Of a stretch of 64,000 nucleotides of DNA, positions 3 to 48,393 are shown piece by piece. Both the position numbers and the translations under genes were made by a program. The stretch lies in sequence record MT129652.1; one strand, written 5' to 3'. Within the stretch, counting starts at the first letter, position 1; each line of letters begins with the position of its first letter. This DNA comes from Escherichia phage MN01. The notes beneath the pieces were generated by a model, which was given only the letters and a program-made list of their open reading frames with translations, did not search any database and had not been told where the DNA came from.

Positions 3-272
3 AACCATAACCAACCAGATCTTCTGGCCGCAGTAAAAGAAATCCATGAAGCCATTCGCCGTGCTGAGGAAATTGCAGACAAATATGAGACTCATTTTAA
101 TATATACCCTGCTCGCGGTATGGGCGGTGACTATTATTCTCCTGGCGCCTTGAAAGCTGACCTTGCTCATTGGGAAGAAGATGGTCATCCTGAATGGGCC
201 ATTGTTAATACTCATGACTACACAACCGACCTGGAAAATGGCGGTTGGGTGTCCTCTTCTTCTGAATGTTAA
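3..272 (+). CDS. 5'-truncated small acidic protein; member 1 of tandem W-x-x-S-S-x-x-C-stop family
   Basis: Frame open from window edge to TAA 270-272; C-terminus ...LENGGWVSSSSEC; stop fused to next SD (TGTTAAGGA). Confidence 0.6.
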   Translation, partial: NHNQPDLLAAVKEIHEAIRRAEEIADKYETHFNIYPARGMGGDYYSPGALKADLAHWEEDGHPEWAIVNTHDYTTDLENGGWVSSSSEC

Positions 273-280
273 GGAATTAT

Positions 281-478
281 ATGTCTCGTGAATTAGATTG
301 TGCAATCCGTACTGCCGCAGCAGCTATTGAAAACGTTATCCAGATTTGCAAAGAAGAACGCGAAGAAGCTGATATCTATATCGATGGTGTTCGTGACCTA
401 GACCGACATATTACGCTTTATAATGGTTGTATTACTATTAGTGGTACCTCTTGGGTGTCCTCCTCTTACGAATGCTAA
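281..478 (+). CDS. small acidic protein; family member 2
   Basis: ATG 281 behind SD AAGGA (track start 266 lies in upstream gene); ends ...SGTSWVSSSYEC; stop fused to next SD TGCTAAGGA. Confidence 0.65.
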   Translation: MSRELDCAIRTAAAAIENVIQICKEEREEADIYIDGVRDLDRHITLYNGCITISGTSWVSSSYEC

Positions 479-487
479 GGAAATAAA

Positions 488-706
488 ATGACTACTAAAA
501 CTGTTAAAGAAATCGAAGACCAAATCCGTGCACTAATCTGTGAAGGTCTGACTGCGGCGGATGAAACCGGCGAACACTTCCGCGCCGGTGGCGAAGAATA
601 TATTCCAGCTTCTAGCCCGGAATATGACGATTATGAATGGGTTCGTGATGAATATTGTATTCCAGAAGGTGAAGGTTTCTGGTTTAACTCCTCTATGTCT
701 TGCTAA
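488..706 (+). CDS. small acidic protein; family member 3
   Basis: SD AAGGA upstream; ends ...GEGFWFNSSMSC; stop fused to SD TGCTAAGGT. Confidence 0.65.
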   Translation: MTTKTVKEIEDQIRALICEGLTAADETGEHFRAGGEEYIPASSPEYDDYEWVRDEYCIPEGEGFWFNSSMSC

Positions 707-715
707 GGTGATAAA

Positions 716-949
716 ATGACTACTACTGTTGAACATGCTGAATTAGAAAAAGCTGCCCTTGAACTGGCCGCGCTGTATAAGAAAGTAAAAGATATGGCTT
801 TTGCTCAAGATTTCGGTGTCGAGCTTGATGATTATGACGGCGAAGTCCGTCTTGAAGACTGGTTGAACAGCTCTTGTTATGGTGAAGAAGCTGGGCGTAC
901 CTTCGTTGCTCGTGCCGATGGTAAAATCTGGTACCCAAGTTCATGTTAA
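716..949 (+). CDS. small acidic protein; family member 4 (motif twice)
   Basis: Internal EDWLNSSCY and terminal KIWYPSSC-stop. Confidence 0.65.
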   Translation: MTTTVEHAELEKAALELAALYKKVKDMAFAQDFGVELDDYDGEVRLEDWLNSSCYGEEAGRTFVARADGKIWYPSSC

Positions 950-1170
950 AATTAAAGAAAAGATATATTCGTAAAATAAATGGTCTTCGTGATTACGCCA
1001 AAGGTTGGCCGTTAAGTATTATTATGGCTGATAGACATCCACGTTACAATACCGAGTTGACTTATTACAAAAAGTATGATTCGTATTGTCGGTCTAAAGC
1101 GGGTCGTTTAGATGGTTCCTATGAAGAATATTTCGGTAAAAAACCTACTCGTATTTCGTTAGGAAAATAA
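943..1170 (+). CDS. hypothetical basic protein (75 aa)
   Basis: ATG overlaps upstream stop (ATGTTAA); no family recognised. Confidence 0.5.
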   Translation: MLKLKKRYIRKINGLRDYAKGWPLSIIMADRHPRYNTELTYYKKYDSYCRSKAGRLDGSYEEYFGKKPTRISLGK

Positions 1171-1273: not shown

Positions 1274-1504
1274 ATGTGGTATTATGCCCCAATGGCTGAT
1301 GAGCCTGTAAAAATTAGCCGTGCTAAGTTTACAAAGATTTACGGTCTCGTTTATAAAAAGTCTGATTACGGTGTGCGTTTTGAAGATGCACACTGTATCA
1401 ACGACCCTTATAATGAAGACCTCTATGGCAAATTGGTTCCTATCGTTAAGGGGTCCGCCTCTGAGATGATAGATGAATCTAATATATCTGCTGCTGAAAT
1501 TTAA
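1274..1504 (+). CDS. hypothetical protein (76 aa)
   Basis: ATG 1274 behind SD GAGGA; the track's TTG 1250 start lies in the leader. Confidence 0.55.
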   Translation: MWYYAPMADEPVKISRAKFTKIYGLVYKKSDYGVRFEDAHCINDPYNEDLYGKLVPIVKGSASEMIDESNISAAEI

Positions 1505-1523: not shown

Positions 1524-2483
1524 ATGATGTTAGTTATTGGTTCTCGTGCATTACATAACGCTGGCCTGATTGAAAGTCAGAAAATTGAAAACTCTGATTG
1601 GGACTTCATCGCTGACCAAGGTTCCTGGAACCACTTTAAAGCACGTATGTTCGGTGCTCATGTTCCTGTGGATAACCCTGATGTCCAAGCTTTTAAATGT
1701 ATGTACAATGGCAAAGAAACTTATTTTGAAGCTTATATTGTCCGTGCCCTGACCAACGTACGAGAAATTACTGGTGAGCTTCAAGACGAAGATTTCACCT
1801 CAAGTTATCGTCTCTTGAAATACGCTGAAAATCATATTAAGAAAGACCGTCTTACAGGTTTCTATTGGGCAACTCCTGATATTTGTCTGGCAATTAAACT
1901 GTCTCATCGTTACCTGAAGAACAATCCATTCTTCCTGAAGACCATGAGCCATATTAATTACCTTCGTAATAAGGGTGTTGTTCTTAATGATGAACTGCAG
2001 AAAATCATGCTGCAACGGCAGGCAGAAACACTGTCATACAGCCACCCTAAACTAGACGTGGGCAAGAAAACTTTCTTTAATGATACAATCTATACCCTTG
2101 ACCATGACTCCATCCACGAGGCCGTGGCGCTTGCTGATAAGCCTGCATATAAGTTCTATATGAAGGATGATTCAGAAGTCATGACCTCGCGTGAAAAATT
2201 TGAAGCACTCCCTGATGTTATTAAACTGGCAGGTGTTTATGAAGAAGCATGTGTACTTGCTCTGGAGCGTTCGCAGGTTCCCAATGAGTTTAATATCTCT
2301 CCATCCGTGAGCTTCCATATTGCTCTGGAAAAAGTCTGCACCTCCATTACTTCTGGATGGTTCCGTGAGTATGCCTGGGAACATTACCAGGAAGTGGTTA
2401 ATATGTACAACACCCTGGGTCGCGAAGACTATGTTAAACGTTTCAAGGCTAACCAACATTTAATTCGTCCTTTCACAAAATAA
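1524..2483 (+). CDS. hypothetical protein, possible nucleotidyltransferase-fold N-terminus
   Basis: ATG 1524 behind SD GAGGA; N-terminus VIGSRAL..x17..DWDFI loosely fits the GS...DxD NTase pattern. Confidence 0.6.
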   Translation: MMLVIGSRALHNAGLIESQKIENSDWDFIADQGSWNHFKARMFGAHVPVDNPDVQAFKCMYNGKETYFEAYIVRALTNVREITGELQDEDFTSSYRLLKYAENHIKKDRLTGFYWATPDICLAIKLSHRYLKNNPFFLKTMSHINYLRNKGVVLNDELQKIMLQRQAETLSYSHPKLDVGKKTFFNDTIYTLDHDSIHEAVALADKPAYKFYMKDDSEVMTSREKFEALPDVIKLAGVYEEACVLALERSQVPNEFNISPSVSFHIALEKVCTSITSGWFREYAWEHYQEVVNMYNTLGREDYVKRFKANQHLIRPFTK

Positions 2484-2542: not shown

Positions 2543-3229
2543 ATGAACGGTCCAAAAACTTTTAATTCTCAAGCTCATGCAGTAGGCAGTTTCGCTGGTA
2601 AAATTTCTAATGATAAAATCAAAAACGAAACTATGTTCTTTAACAGCTCATTGGCTTTCGCTTTTGACAATGGTGGCCCTATTACTCGTAGCTTTATCAT
2701 GAGTCTGCCGGATGATTGGAACACTGACCAGGTTGTATTTGATTCTCGGGTTCATATGCTTATGCCTGGTTGGTATCCTGCTATCCCAGGTTATCACCAT
2801 GATGATGTACCACGCCCGGATATTCCGGTTGGTCAACACTTTATTACTGCAGGGCAACCTGATTATGATAATCCTCGTTACCATTCTGAACATATTCTTG
2901 GTCTTGTTAACGCTGATGTGTGTCCTACTTATTTTGCAACCGGAACTGCGCAATTTAGTCAGATTCCTGAAGGCGAACTTATCTATCGCCAGTGGCATAA
3001 AGAAGTTCTGGAAAAAATTGAGTCCAATGAATTAACCAAGTGGGATGCTCCTGACCGCACGTTGCTCCAGTTTGATTGGCAGACATGGCATACAGGTTCT
3101 CGCGCAGTAAGTAATGGTTGGCGCTGGTTTGGTCGTGTGTCTCGTAATACTGACCGTGTTAAAAAGATTACAAATGAAATCCGCGTCAATGCTCAAGTAT
3201 ATCTGGAATTCCCTATGGAGGGCTGGTAA
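2543..3229 (+). CDS. hypothetical protein, possible cupin/2OG-Fe(II)-oxygenase-like
   Basis: SD GAGGA; GYHHDD ... WHTGSRAVSNGWRWFGR resembles HxD...H...R; weak. Confidence 0.6.
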   Translation: MNGPKTFNSQAHAVGSFAGKISNDKIKNETMFFNSSLAFAFDNGGPITRSFIMSLPDDWNTDQVVFDSRVHMLMPGWYPAIPGYHHDDVPRPDIPVGQHFITAGQPDYDNPRYHSEHILGLVNADVCPTYFATGTAQFSQIPEGELIYRQWHKEVLEKIESNELTKWDAPDRTLLQFDWQTWHTGSRAVSNGWRWFGRVSRNTDRVKKITNEIRVNAQVYLEFPMEGW

Positions 3230-3816: not shown

Positions 3817-4049
3817 GTATTGCAATTTATATTAAATCCGAGTCATGTGATTCTTATCTGTATTCCTATGACACTGGAACACCAGAAGAGAAAATCAAAG
3901 ATGATTTAGAAACTGATTTAGATATGTTCCGCCCGATTTCTGAATACAGAATTCAAACTTCTGATAGTGAATCTCCTTCATTGGAAAACAGACTTGAATT
4001 TTTAATGAGTGATATTTTTAACCAATCATGGAAACGTGACGATGAGTAA
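3813..4049 (+). CDS. hypothetical acidic protein (78 aa)
   Basis: ATGA overlap with upstream stop. Confidence 0.55.
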   Translation: MSIAIYIKSESCDSYLYSYDTGTPEEKIKDDLETDLDMFRPISEYRIQTSDSESPSLENRLEFLMSDIFNQSWKRDDE

Positions 4050-4500
4050 GAAAAACAAGGTGAAAGAATTATCTGCTGGCATTATTTTCATGACTGAAGA
4101 TAAAGAGTTATTCATGGGTCGTGTGACTGGTTCTCGTAAACCAGGTATGCCTGCACACAAATGGGACATCCCTAAAGGTCATGTTGAAGCTGGTGAATCC
4201 CCGATTGAAGCGGCTATCCGTGAAACCGAAGAAGAAACCGGGTTTACTCAATACGACCCGGCATTCTTAAAGGACCTGGGCGAATTCCGTTATTCAGATA
4301 ACAAAAATCTTCACCTGTTTTTGTACACGGTTCCGGTCGAGCATGAGCAGTTCAGACATAGTAAATGCTCTGCCTATCATACCTTCCCGGATGGTAGTTC
4401 GATTCCAGAGTTCGATGCATTTGCTCTGATTAAACCAAGTCAATGGCAGTATGTGATGGGCAAATCGATGTACAAGGTACTGACTCAAATTTTCGGATAA
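4042..4500 (+). CDS. nudE: Nudix hydrolase NudE (e.1)
   Basis: Nudix box GHVEAGESPIEAAIRETEEETGF; 152 aa; immediately upstream of e as in T4. Confidence 0.85.
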   Translation: MSKKNKVKELSAGIIFMTEDKELFMGRVTGSRKPGMPAHKWDIPKGHVEAGESPIEAAIRETEEETGFTQYDPAFLKDLGEFRYSDNKNLHLFLYTVPVEHEQFRHSKCSAYHTFPDGSSIPEFDAFALIKPSQWQYVMGKSMYKVLTQIFG

Positions 4501-5853: not shown

Positions 5854-6153
5854 ATGAAAACTTATCAAGAATTTATTACTGAAGCCAAAGCTCCTAAAGC
5901 ATTTCAAATTGGGGTTCAGGGTAATTTAGACCAACAATATGTTGATGCTATTGTAGCAAGCCTCGGTAAACAGGGTGTACAAGTGGATTTGGTTGATTTT
6001 ACTAAAGGTAATACTTTTAATATTGTTACATCTAAAGGTTCTTTAGCTAAAGTTAAAAAGGCCTTTGGTGTAGCACAAGCATACGAAATCGACCATTCTG
6101 AATTAGAAAATAAAGGTCGCCAGAACACAATTAAAGGTTCTGGTTCTTTCTAA
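5854..6153 (+). CDS. capsid internal protein with capsid targeting sequence
   Basis: MKTYQEFITEA at ATG 5854; the track's 5815 start is inside the -10 element. Confidence 0.75.
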   Translation: MKTYQEFITEAKAPKAFQIGVQGNLDQQYVDAIVASLGKQGVQVDLVDFTKGNTFNIVTSKGSLAKVKKAFGVAQAYEIDHSELENKGRQNTIKGSGSF

Positions 6154-6313
6154 TAAAGGCAAGCCGGCCCTCTCCTCATGAACGTCGCGTCCTCTGAGTG
6201 ATGGACCTTTCCCTACCTGTAATAAGGTCGAGCCCAAGTGCGGTAAAGGGTTTACATACGGATACATGGATGAATTATGTGCCAAGGAACGGCCCCACAA
6301 TTAAGAGACAACT
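6154..6313 (+). other. GC-rich (~50%) 160-nt non-coding spacer lacking the usual promoter cassette
   Basis: Only a 38-codon ORF (6201-6317); hairpins GACCTT/AAGGTC 6204-6229 and 6230-6253. Confidence 0.4.
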
Positions 6314-33438: not shown

Positions 33439-34398
33439 ATGTTAACGGTTAATGACAAAGAATTCATGTGGGAACAAAAATACCGCCCAGGTACATTATC
33501 AGAGTGTATTCTTCCTGCTCATGATAAAGAAACATTAGAGGCGATTGTTAAAAAAGGTTTGATTCCTAACTTGATTCTGGTCAGTAGTTCCCCTGGTACT
33601 GGTAAGACAACAGTTGCGAAAGCTATGTGCGCGGATACAAATTCTGATATGCTGTTTGTTAACGGCTCCGATTGCCGAATTGACTTTGTGCGTAATGAAT
33701 TGACTCGCTTTGCATCGTCCAAATCAATCGAAGGACGCCGCAAGGTAATCGTTATCGATGAGTTTGACCGTGCAGGTCTGGCTGAATCACAACGACACCT
33801 TCGCAGCTTTATGGAAGCTTATTCAAGCAACTGTTCAATCATTATGACCGCGAACAATATCGATGGCATCATCACTCCGTTGCAGTCTCGTTGTCGCGTA
33901 ATTAAGTTTGGTGAAGCAACTCCGGCTGACCAGACTACTATGATGAAAGAGATGATTCATCGCGCAGTCGCGGTATGTAAAAATGAAGGCGTTGAAATCG
34001 AAGACCTGAAAGTTGTTGCTGCTCTGGTTAAGCATAACTTCCCGGACCTGCGTAAGACAATTAACGAACTTGACCGTTACTCTGCAAAGGGTGTTATCGA
34101 TTCCGGTATTCTGAGTATCGTGACAAACAATCGCACGCCAATTGATGATGTGATTGATGCCCTTAAGGACCGCAACTTTAAAGTTCTCCGTGGTCTGGCT
34201 CCTAAGCATGCAAATGATTATTCAAACTTCATTGCAAAGCTGGCTGATGAAATGTACGGCAAACTGACTGGTGCAAGCATTATCCGTATGTATGAGATTG
34301 TGGGTGAGAATAATCAGTACCATGGCATTGCAGCCAATACCGAAGTTCACTTGACTTATCTGTTTGCTCAACTGGCTGGGGAAATGAAATGGCTGTAA
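33439..34398 (+). CDS. 44: clamp loader large subunit gp44
   Basis: EQKYRP..SSPGTGKTT..VIDEFD..SRC matches T4 gp44; 319 aa. Confidence 0.97.
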   Translation: MLTVNDKEFMWEQKYRPGTLSECILPAHDKETLEAIVKKGLIPNLILVSSSPGTGKTTVAKAMCADTNSDMLFVNGSDCRIDFVRNELTRFASSKSIEGRRKVIVIDEFDRAGLAESQRHLRSFMEAYSSNCSIIMTANNIDGIITPLQSRCRVIKFGEATPADQTTMMKEMIHRAVAVCKNEGVEIEDLKVVAALVKHNFPDLRKTINELDRYSAKGVIDSGILSIVTNNRTPIDDVIDALKDRNFKVLRGLAPKHANDYSNFIAKLADEMYGKLTGASIIRMYEIVGENNQYHGIAANTEVHLTYLFAQLAGEMKWL

Positions 34399-34967
34399 GT
34401 CTCTTTGATGATGACGTTCAATTAAACGAACATGAGGTTGCGTGGAAATCACGCGACTTTAACAAAATTCAGGAATTGTCCGATTCATACAAAGAGAAAG
34501 CAGAAAATGAATTGTTCGCGATTCTTAATGACATAACCGTTAGCAAAAAACCACGGAACCTGATTCAATCGGAAAACTACAATAAATTCTGGTTGGAAAA
34601 CGCATTGAGTCAACATGTCGATTGCATTATGCAGGTGAATGTGATGAACTTAATCGGTTCCGGGTTAACAGACCAACAGCATTATAATTATTTGCTGCAT
34701 GCAGTTCCACAAGGCAAGCGTTATGGCAAATGGGCAAAGGCTGAGCCGGATGTGGTCAACGTCCAGCTTGTGTTAAAGCTTTTAATGAAATATTATACAA
34801 TTAATGCAGATGATGCTTTGATGTATATGGAAACATTGAAAGTCAAAGGTAGTCTTAAAGATGTTTTGAAAAAGACAAAAGGTCTGGTAACGGATGAATT
34901 CTTAAAGACCGTTACCAGTAATGTGAAAGAACAAAAAGAAATTAAAAAACAAATATTGGAATGGTAA
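34389..34967 (+). CDS. 62: clamp loader small subunit gp62
   Basis: SLFDDDVQLNEHEVAW..GKRYGKWAK..KGLVTDEFLK matches T4 gp62. Confidence 0.93.
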   Translation: MAVSLFDDDVQLNEHEVAWKSRDFNKIQELSDSYKEKAENELFAILNDITVSKKPRNLIQSENYNKFWLENALSQHVDCIMQVNVMNLIGSGLTDQQHYNYLLHAVPQGKRYGKWAKAEPDVVNVQLVLKLLMKYYTINADDALMYMETLKVKGSLKDVLKKTKGLVTDEFLKTVTSNVKEQKEIKKQILEW

Positions 34968-47857: not shown

Positions 47858-48055
47858 ATGTTAAACCGTTGGATTAAACCAAATAAAGCTTTAGATGAAA
47901 TTATTGCTCATGATGTCCATTTTAAGTATGGATTGGGTGTGTTTGATGAGGTTATCGTACATTCATTCATGATGCATGACGATGACTCTTTAGAATTCAA
48001 TATTGAAATCCGATGTGATGATGGTAAAGTTGAATTTAAACGAGGTTTCCTATGA
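47858..48055 (+). CDS. hypothetical protein (65 aa)
   Basis: ATG 47858 behind SD GAGGAG. Confidence 0.5.
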   Translation: MLNRWIKPNKALDEIIAHDVHFKYGLGVFDEVIVHSFMMHDDDSLEFNIEIRCDDGKVEFKRGFL

Positions 48056-48393
48056 TTAGTTGGCTCAAGAATTTATTCAAGACTAAACCTGGTGAGGGTG
48101 TGGTTCCAGTTAACGTGCCAGATGTTAAGCTAAGAGAATATGTTTACATGGGCGACGGCATGATGGAAGAAGTGGTCAAATCGAAATCAAAAGACCTATA
48201 TTCTACAATGTCAGAAGAAGACTTACAAAAACGTTTAACTCGACTGCAAGAACAAAGAGCTCAAGCGCAAAGCAGTATCGATACTACTTCGATTGTGGTC
48301 ACCGCTGCTGCAGTCAGTTCGTGGACCGGTGATTCGTCTTATTCCTCCTATGATTCGGGAAGCTGTGATTCGTCTTCCAGCTCGTGTGATTAA
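48052..48393 (+). CDS. hypothetical protein with Ser/Cys-rich tail
   Basis: Ends SSWTGDSSYSSYDSGSCDSSSSSCD. Confidence 0.55.
   Translation: MISWLKNLFKTKPGEGVVPVNVPDVKLREYVYMGDGMMEEVVKSKSKDLYSTMSEEDLQKRLTRLQEQRAQAQSSIDTTSIVVTAAAVSSWTGDSSYSSYDSGSCDSSSSSCD

Follow-up and report, generated by a model that had tools for sequence, protein, structure and literature searches.

The first kilobase of a 64,000-nucleotide stretch of DNA from Escherichia phage MN01 (sequence record MT129652.1; the window, below, is this whole stretch) encodes four consecutive small acidic proteins that converge on one C-terminus: a tryptophan, a pair of serines and, immediately before the stop codon, a cysteine. What purpose does this tail serve, and with what other protein, if any, does it work? 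The answer that is developed here is that a conserved module of two parts is present, with the multi-copy array of small genes upstream and a single gene for a DUF7277+DUF7275 nucleotidyltransferase downstream, and that the small proteins and the enzyme are probably functional partners, with the tail as their means of partnership. The window comes from a T-even-type phage of the Straboviridae whose nearest relatives are Escherichia phages TH41, TH55 and UPEC07 and Shigella phage SP18 (Gaprivervirus-like).

The tail-bearing array

The open reading frames (ORFs) of the array, and a further copy of the motif inside the last of them, are the following.

3..272, plus strand: paralog 1, its 5' end cut by the window edge; GMGGxYYxP loop; C-terminus GGWVSSSSEC-stop; phrog_899 (E 1.5e-18).
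281..478, plus strand: paralog 2, 65 amino acids (aa) from the ATG at 281; the most divergent body; C-terminus TSWVSSSYEC-stop; phrog_4882.
488..706, plus strand: paralog 3, 72 aa; C-terminus GFWFNSSMSC-stop; phrog_899; AlphaFold model alpha-beta-beta-alpha-beta, predicted local distance difference test score (pLDDT) 92.9.
716..949, plus strand: paralog 4, 77 aa; C-terminus KIWYPSSC-stop, with zero spacer between Ser-Ser and Cys; phrog_899.
857-880, plus strand: DWLNSSCY, the internal motif copy of paralog 4, read from the sequence (W-L-N-S-S-C at 860..877).

The C-terminus shared by the four ORFs, all on one strand, is W-x-x-S-S-x(0-2)-C-stop. The first three junctions read TGTTAAGGA, TGCTAAGGA and TGCTAAGGT (TG[TC]-TAA-GG), with the next ATG 7-9 nucleotides on; at the fourth, the ATG (943) of the following ORF overlaps the Cys codon of paralog 4. 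Gene junctions in the array are tight or overlapping. A promoter and terminator scan yielded nothing above background, and it detected no terminator in the stretch from the array to the nucleotidyltransferase gene. The proteins have isoelectric points (pI) of 4.1-5.2 and net charges of -5 to -12. Full orthologs of the truncated paralog 1 have 93 aa and begin MMND... In a search of 5.8 billion proteins the family profile matches orthologs of paralog 2 (P0041-P0044) at E values of 3e-5 to 4e-4 and an ortholog of paralog 4 (P0034) at 1e-8.

These tails, the internal copy in paralog 4 and the way in which, at the first three junctions, Cys codon and stop run into the Shine-Dalgarno sequence of the following gene had been noted in the original prediction, and each is present in the sequence as it was described there. 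The count of four that went with them is correct for the window, but the first gene is incomplete and close relatives have one more: a fifth paralog of 96 aa with the C-terminus GAWVSSSEMC lies directly upstream of paralog 1 in UPEC07 and in seven IMG/VR relatives (L035-L041), so that the array has five members.

That the tail pattern of the array is real and not the product of chance is established by counting. Scanned over the six reading frames of the 64-kb window, the regular expression W..S[ST].{0,3}C-stop matches five times, and four of the matches are the array tails; it is because this number is so low window-wide, and because the minus strand of the related loci described below has none, that chance is dismissed. 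The fifth match, WSTSSLC-stop at 34753-34776, lies in a non-coding alternative frame inside the clamp-loader gene (33439-34398 / 34389-34967 region) and is itself a chance occurrence.

GenBank annotation obscures the array in UPEC07 (L001, MW250787). The fifth paralog, at L001 3699-3989, is masked by a coding sequence at 3817-4272 that merges frames, a mis-framed "tail completion protein", and across L001 3699-5516 the small accessory ORFs bear the names "tail completion protein", "major capsid protein" (twice) and "portal vertex protein", all of which are spurious.

A family defined by its C-terminus

The family had been reported as unrecognized, and so it is in curated resources. Searches of Pfam, NCBIfam and PADLOC with the small proteins return zero matches; a sequence profile search of the PDB returns designed helical bundles or noise only, and no solved relative; the literature on the motif, on the PHROG and DUF names, and on a C-terminal cysteine together with a phage nucleotidyltransferase yielded nothing relevant. 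The only assignments are to two PHROGs, 899 (paralogs 1, 3 and 4) and 4882 (paralog 2), both of unknown function.

The family is nevertheless large when sought by sequence. Word-indexed searches retrieved 46 homologs, in all 46 of which the motif is terminal, and among 50,697 phage records 452 have homologs of a single small-protein query. When 1.84 billion cluster representatives were searched exhaustively with a HMMER profile (E <= 1e-3), there were 117 hits, clusters that are less than 50% identical to each other and 113 of which are small proteins. The motif W-x-x-S-[ST]-x(0-3)-C stands at the extreme C-terminus in 105 of these 113 and a looser form in 2 more; most of the deviating representatives have one extra residue. 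Conservation in orthologs, which had been proposed as a check on the motif, thus extends to remote homologs. In an alignment of 110 sequences with a mean column identity of 16%, W, S, S and C are the sole invariant columns, and it is for this reason that the tail is to be regarded as the functionally constrained part of the family. In a set of 358 distinct tails, 356 have S at the position of the second Ser. Two residues separate Ser-Ser from Cys in 302 of them, none in 42 (12%) and three in 13. An additional, internal W..S[STG]..C copy accompanies 36 of the 358, which makes the internal copy in paralog 4 a family trait.

The rest of the protein is recognizable but loosely kept. Its consensus runs from an N-terminal helix (..EAExIADExG) through an F-x-F hairpin, a loop (aYGMGGTYyP) and an acidic Trp-rich segment to G-x-W-x-S-S-S-x-x-C; paralogs in one array are 20-35% identical, and acidity is family-wide (median pI 4.4, net charge -8). 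Measured against the body features of the family (60-110 aa, acidic, ..IADExG helix, F-x-F hairpin, Y-x-P / YGMGGTYYP loop), paralogs 1 and 3 fit clearly, paralog 4 partially and paralog 2 weakly. The AlphaFold2 model, made from a 24-sequence alignment, is a compact alpha-beta-beta-alpha-beta domain (pLDDT 92.9) for which no recognizable fold match was found. Its last beta-strand contains the Trp, and the run of Ser is modelled as a short helix at the end of the chain, with confidence dropping only at the last two residues; that is to say, the tail is predicted to be part of the fold and not a disordered appendage. The array ORFs are tandem paralogs of a phage-restricted, 65-100-aa, acidic alpha/beta family, and a free C-terminal W-x-x-S-S-x(0-3)-Cys is its defining feature.

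An array subfamily has only an internal W-E-A-S-G-G-C-(S)-E-W-E-E-S, with a C-terminus of ..YGWN[IV] and no terminal Cys. Members without the terminal Cys are located as follows.

L122 (Pseudomonas phage REC), 2270-2683.
L015, 5525-5944.
L017, 5336-5944.
L022, 5534-5950.

A nucleotidyltransferase gene is the near-constant neighbour

The original prediction held that no modifying enzyme is adjacent to the array. That statement does not survive: a gene for a protein resembling Pol-beta nucleotidyltransferases starts 575 bp beyond the end of the array (949) in the window, behind two small lineage-specific ORFs, and lies directly downstream of the array in most other phages.

1524..2483, plus strand: partner gene, 319 aa; Pol-beta-superfamily nucleotidyltransferase-like; Pfam DUF7277 (N-terminal) and DUF7275 (C-terminal); phrog_2141.

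The association was examined from both sides. From the side of the small proteins, 32 IMG/VR loci were collected with a YGMGG-containing sub-alignment (the broad alignment lacks a conserved 7-mer). Most of these loci carry tandem arrays of 2-5 paralogs; in the family as a whole, a single enzyme gene is accompanied by 2-6. When neighbouring ORFs are clustered, a single family is near-universal, a protein of ~300 aa encoded directly downstream of the array in 30 of the 32 loci; no other neighbour cluster occurs in more than 9. One of the two loci that lack it is cut by a contig end and the other, L019, is without it, so that the enzyme is found within about 1.5 kb downstream in 30 of 31 testable loci. 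In L019 (IMGVR_UViG_3300033498_000048, 306 kb) the tail-bearing ORF is at 5956-6234; this is the sole tail-bearing locus without a nucleotidyltransferase within 6 kb, and it has a PNKP-like gene nearby.

In the reciprocal test, 80 loci were retrieved through the nucleotidyltransferase alone, and 74 of them have at least one tail-bearing ORF upstream. The tail-bearing ORFs at the 80 loci number 197: every one is on the strand of the enzyme, none is downstream of it, and 182 end within 2 kb upstream. The 197 plus-strand occurrences are to be set against 0 in 3547 minus-strand ORFs of the same loci. With enzymes collapsed at 70% identity the association is retained in 39 of 42 lineages. The contigs that carry the module range from 8 kb to 371 kb and comprise T4-like, jumbo, ~100-kb Pseudomonas/Pectobacterium (including Pseudomonas phage REC) and ~150-kb phAPEC8-like phages. 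Two-way synteny shows the gene linkage to be strong, directional and phylogenetically broad. No fusion of the small family with the enzyme (a Rosetta-stone protein) is found among the 120 nucleotidyltransferase homologs listed.

The partner is identified by its residues and its predicted structure. Invariant in its alignment are G6-S7, D25-x-D27 and E69, placed on the beta1-helix-beta2 ... beta pattern of Pol-beta nucleotidyltransferases. The enzymes nearest to its AlphaFold model (pLDDT 90.6) are MenT1/3/4, which act on the tRNA 3'-OH, and ANT(2'') and LnuA, which act on antibiotic hydroxyls; the acceptors of MenT, ANT(2'') and LnuA are thus hydroxyls, and AbiEii is also alike. Modelled fold and conserved residues together show a protein of the Pol-beta nucleotidyltransferase fold class with an intact catalytic triad. 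It is not a member of a named nucleotidyltransferase family in the searches made: a Pfam scan at E <= 10 gives only DUF7275 and DUF7277, with neither PF08843 (DUF1814/AbiEii) nor PF10127 (RlaP); PADLOC and NCBIfam give nothing relevant; and a PDB sequence profile search gives designed helical bundles or noise. The C-terminal domain is helical and highly conserved (invariant K125, H128, K139, H194-D195, H198, E240, E241, E248, R249; residues 125-249), and its D-H-D..H pattern looks like a candidate HD-type metal site, one that a terminal Cys thiolate could ligate.

The enzyme family comprises 2061 clusters, and 731 phage records out of 50,697 contain it. Bacterial and archaeal species genomes are nearly devoid of it; because only 5 contigs of metagenome-assembled genomes (MAGs) among 185,579 species genomes contain it, the module is shown to be phage-specific. 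In Gordonia phage JonJames (L120, 3318-4100) and Streptomyces phage Annadreamy (L121, 3378-4133) the enzyme is shorter (~250-260 aa) and its catalytic residues are kept; neither locus has W..SS..C proteins upstream. A tRNA cluster lies 1.5 kb downstream of the JonJames gene, and an RNA ligase is encoded two genes upstream of that of Annadreamy. W279, in an SGWFRE motif, is replaced by R in three of four enzyme-only lineages, a substitution that is confounded by phylogeny.

Genomic setting and other features

Relative to T4, the block lies between genes for e.4/e.3-like membrane proteins and an e.2-like gene, nudE and e. The expectation that orthologs of the array genes would be found in the e.x region of T4-like phages at large fails for T4 itself, in which e.2-e.8 include neither the small family nor the 319-aa nucleotidyltransferase. 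Orthology of the array genes with T4 e.x genes is ruled out on this ground: the array is an insertion between the e.3-like and e.2-like genes. Three further ORFs close to the module are outside its conserved part.

943..1170, plus strand: intervening basic ORF, 75 aa; phrog_7065; missing from most other loci, which have array and nucleotidyltransferase gene side by side.
1274..1504, plus strand: intervening ORF, 76 aa; phrog_3723.
2543-3229: ORF behind the nucleotidyltransferase gene, 228 aa; phrog_1843, no Pfam match; His/Asp-rich motifs; T4-like phages only.

RNA-repair genes accompany the module elsewhere. PNKP is encoded within 5-6 kb at 18 loci and Rnl1 at 8, mostly in jumbo phages, and neither in the T4-like context of the window. 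An Rnl1-type RNA ligase, PNKP (kinase plus haloacid dehalogenase (HAD) phosphatase) and a calcineurin-like phosphoesterase occur within about 3-6 kb at L003-L006, L010, L014, L016, L018, L019, L064, L065, L072, L078, L090 and L103. tRNA genes within 5 kb, at 16 of about 120 loci, are too weak a signal to serve as evidence. The RNA-repair neighbours hint at a nucleotidyltransferase that acts on RNA or tRNA ends.

A related tail had also been claimed for an ORF some 48 kb away from the array; it belongs to an unrelated family.

48052-48393: 48-kb ORF, DUF7206 / phrog_2031, Mrh.1/Mrh.2-like; Ser/Cys/Asp-rich low-complexity tail (SSWTGDSSYSSYDSGSCDSSSSSCD).

This ORF is annotated as Mrh.1/Mrh.2 in JS98 and JS10, and its C-terminus, ...SSSSSCD, has no Trp anchor. 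Comparison by hhalign rejects it as a family member (probability 5% over 13 low-complexity columns), and its Pfam and PHROG families differ from those of the array proteins. Judged by its sequence, the resemblance is compositional.

Relation to known systems

The closest known architecture is that of MenAT1 of Mycobacterium tuberculosis, in which a small protein is encoded upstream of a MenT-like nucleotidyltransferase, as here. MenT enzymes add nucleotides to tRNA 3' ends; MenA1, which is short and encoded upstream, blocks the active site of MenT1 and causes the enzyme to phosphorylate a Thr of its own in that site (PMC10435456, PMC11375011), and MenT enzymes can phosphorylate Ser/Thr in their own active sites (PMC11375011). 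The phosphoacceptor stands two residues before the first catalytic Asp, as T39 in MenT1 and S78 in MenT3 (PMC11375011, PMC10435456), whereas the partner does not conserve that position: the window protein has Asn there, and proteins of other lineages mostly have Pro. The partner is predicted to share the bi-lobed MenT-like nucleotidyltransferase fold of the MenAT and AbiE enzymes and has their catalytic G-[GS]...D-x-D; in contrast with MenAT and AbiEi-AbiEii it lacks the DUF1814/PF08843 domain. The small proteins are not homologous to MenA1 or to antitoxins of the AbiEi/MenA3 type, and they come in arrays of 2-6. The present module resides in virulent phages and MenAT in bacterial chromosomes, and nothing in MenAT or AbiEi-AbiEii corresponds to the terminal W..SS..C. 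Two features are without precedent: the small proteins are multi-copy and diversified, and their free C-terminal W..SS..C is invariant.

RlaP (PF10127) is a phage and bacterial nucleotidyltransferase that is encoded near RNA ligase and PNKP and adds 1-2 nucleoside monophosphates (NMPs) to the RNA 3'-OH (bioRxiv 10.64898/2025.12.29.696909; PMC7824862). The present module, too, lies near Rnl1, PNKP and tRNA genes in several lineages, but the partner is of another Pfam family, with no PF10127 match, and no small Cys-tailed proteins have been described for RlaP. The precursor arrays of lanthipeptides and other ribosomally synthesized and post-translationally modified peptides (RiPPs) are alike in having tandem small genes, a common Ser/Cys segment and one adjoining enzyme gene; here, however, the proteins are folded and acidic, the conserved segment is at the extreme C-terminus, and a known RiPP maturase was not found. 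Ocr, ArdA, Arn and Dmd, which are small acidic anti-defence proteins and DNA mimics of phages, are comparable in size, charge, early-region location and tandem diversification; they share no homology with the small proteins, and they have neither an invariant Cys at the C-terminus nor an enzyme gene as an obligate neighbour. The hydroxyls that ANT and Lnu enzymes nucleotidylylate are those of antibiotics. ANT(2'')/AadB, LnuA, GlnD, GlnE and MntA differ from the partner in that the known protein acceptors are Tyr, that none uses a C-terminal Ser/Cys tail or an array of clients, and that there is no sequence similarity.

What the tail may do

That a gene array and an enzyme gene so consistently arranged should probably encode functional partners is a modest step; how they would work together is a longer one. 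Physical interaction, the tail as its contact point, and covalent modification of the tail are all three things that we infer. As a tentative proposal, to which we give preference without regarding it as likely, the tail may be a covalent acceptor of the enzyme. Each paralog would offer its invariant tail to the enzyme at the catalytic cleft, where one of the Ser-pair hydroxyls would receive a nucleotidyl (or phosphoryl) group; the Trp would be an anchor, the thiol and carboxylate of the terminal Cys might be a recognition or metal-binding element, and the divergent bodies could direct each modified paralog to its own target during infection. The proposal is made because the invariant residues of the tail are nucleophiles (two hydroxyls and one thiol) and not typical docking residues, and because the nearest enzymes move NMP (MenT also phosphate) onto hydroxyls. 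Several clients with one handle are suggested by the fact that 2-6 very divergent paralogs per enzyme keep only the tail; that no fusion was found fits the need for a free C-terminus. Internal repeats of the motif, the conservation of the tail, the synteny, and the tight gene junctions with no terminator found ahead of the enzyme gene count in favour of the proposal as well. The more specific form of the proposal is more doubtful than the acceptor role as such: Ser-O-nucleotidylylation or phosphorylation, perhaps followed by chemistry at the Cys thiol, would constitute a new phage system of post-translational modification in which a single enzyme would arm or switch a set of diversified small effectors by way of a shared W-x-S-S-S-x-x-Cys handle. 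The earlier suggestion of post-translational chemistry or of a shared docking peptide accordingly stays alive in part. Attachment of a lipid finds no support; for attachment of a metal, the His/Asp-rich C-terminal domain of the nucleotidyltransferase is a candidate lead.

A number of observations weigh against the tail as the substrate of the enzyme. Some lineages have the enzyme but not the small proteins: the T4-like contig L059, a clade formed by L079, L081, L091 and L114, and the Gordonia and Streptomyces phages; in these the enzyme must have another substrate, plausibly RNA, as do MenT and RlaP. The proximity of Rnl1, PNKP and tRNA genes in several lineages points in the same direction, toward RNA 3' ends as the main substrate. 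The known protein targets of Pol-beta nucleotidyltransferases (GlnD, GlnE, MntA) are Tyr, not Ser. The variable spacing between Ser-Ser and Cys, together with the subfamily that has only the internal W-E-A-S-G-G-C, means that the geometry is not rigid, and the tail-bearing L019 has no nucleotidyltransferase within 6 kb.

Much of this would be accommodated if the small proteins were regulators or pseudo-substrates in the manner of MenA1, a possibility that we consider somewhat unlikely. They would bind non-covalently over the RNA-binding cleft of the enzyme, with the tail mimicking an RNA 3' end or ligating the active-site metal, and would inhibit, time or redirect its action on the 3' end of tRNA or another RNA, as an antitoxin or a specificity factor might. 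Strong acidity is what one expects of a nucleic-acid mimic; the gene order, with the small proteins upstream, fits; RNA-repair and tRNA genes, including one for a metallophosphoesterase, are nearby in several lineages; and an enzyme that can stand alone makes the small proteins accessories. Yet five divergent inhibitors of one enzyme are unusual, the small proteins resemble neither MenA1 nor other antitoxins in sequence or fold, and the enzyme has no conserved Ser/Thr phosphoacceptor two residues before the first Asp, a position that is mostly Pro or variable. With the module all but absent from bacterial genomes (those 5 MAG contigs among 185,579 species genomes), it is no classical toxin-antitoxin or defence module, and an invariant Ser-Ser-Cys is odd for a pure binding motif. 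We rank the acceptor slightly ahead of the regulator because five inhibitors for one enzyme are hard to rationalize and because the invariance of Ser-Ser-Cys looks chemical more than adhesive; the data are compatible with either. A linkage without contact is less probable than either: the enzyme would work on RNA ends, and the small proteins would separately engage the host, perhaps as decoys for its defence enzymes or as their inhibitors, with their tails serving metal or redox chemistry, oligomerization through Cys or docking to host proteins, and the genes would travel together by virtue of a shared stage of infection. Small acidic phage proteins are often anti-defence factors, both genes lie in hyperplastic accessory regions of early genes, two unrelated ORFs separate array and enzyme in T4-like phages, and L019 has a small protein and no enzyme nearby. 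But synteny so tight and directional (30/31 and 74/80 loci, with 197/197 tail-bearing ORFs upstream and on the strand of the enzyme) would be difficult to account for if neither gene depended functionally on the other, all the more so in phages that share almost nothing else nearby (at most 9/32 loci for any other gene cluster).

The remaining readings carry far less weight. In a RiPP-like pathway, which corresponds to the thioether of the original prediction and which we hold to be very improbable, Ser would be activated and eliminated to dehydroalanine, to which the terminal Cys would add to form a C-terminal ring of the lanthionine type. Ser-Ser-x-x-Cys is chemically suited to this, several precursors for one enzyme are reminiscent of RiPP arrays, and a nucleotidyltransferase could conceivably supply the activation of the hydroxyl; we know of no precedent, however, for Ser nucleotidylylation as activation for elimination. 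Genes for LanB, LanC, LanM, LanKC or radical-SAM enzymes were not found nearby, the Pfam matches of the neighbours being DUF7275 and DUF7277 only; the small proteins are folded domains (pLDDT 93) and not leader-core peptides, and the zero spacer in 12% of tails would entail implausible ring sizes. That the tails might be an artefact of constraint on nucleotides (the stop fused to the next Shine-Dalgarno sequence) or of low-complexity composition has a negligible probability. At three junctions TG[TC]TAAGG does tie the end of one gene, its Cys codon and stop, to the ribosome-binding site of the next, but the motif is kept in 105 of 113 clusters less than 50% identical, in unrelated phages with differing junction sequences, and it recurs in the final gene of every array and as internal copies; conservation at the protein level over unrelated junctions and the strand-specific motif counts rule out a nucleotide-level origin.

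Significance

The literature and curated families that were consulted contain no description of the small proteins or of the DUF7277/DUF7275 enzyme, and the module is without functional annotation although it is widespread in T4-like, jumbo, phAPEC8-like and ~100-kb Pseudomonas/Pectobacterium phages, with the enzyme alone in actinophages. A terminal W..SS..C provides a simple rule for annotating a family that is absent from Pfam and corrects spurious GenBank labels. The genomic link turns hypothetical proteins with odd tails into a concrete, testable two-component system. If the small proteins are regulators of a nucleotidyltransferase of tRNA ends, then virulent phages carry MenT-like enzymes with dedicated regulators, which would bear on tRNA-centred conflicts between phage and host. 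If the tail is instead the substrate, both the modification of the protein and the way in which phages put families of accessory proteins to use would be new; should covalent modification of the tail be demonstrated, this would be a categorically new system.

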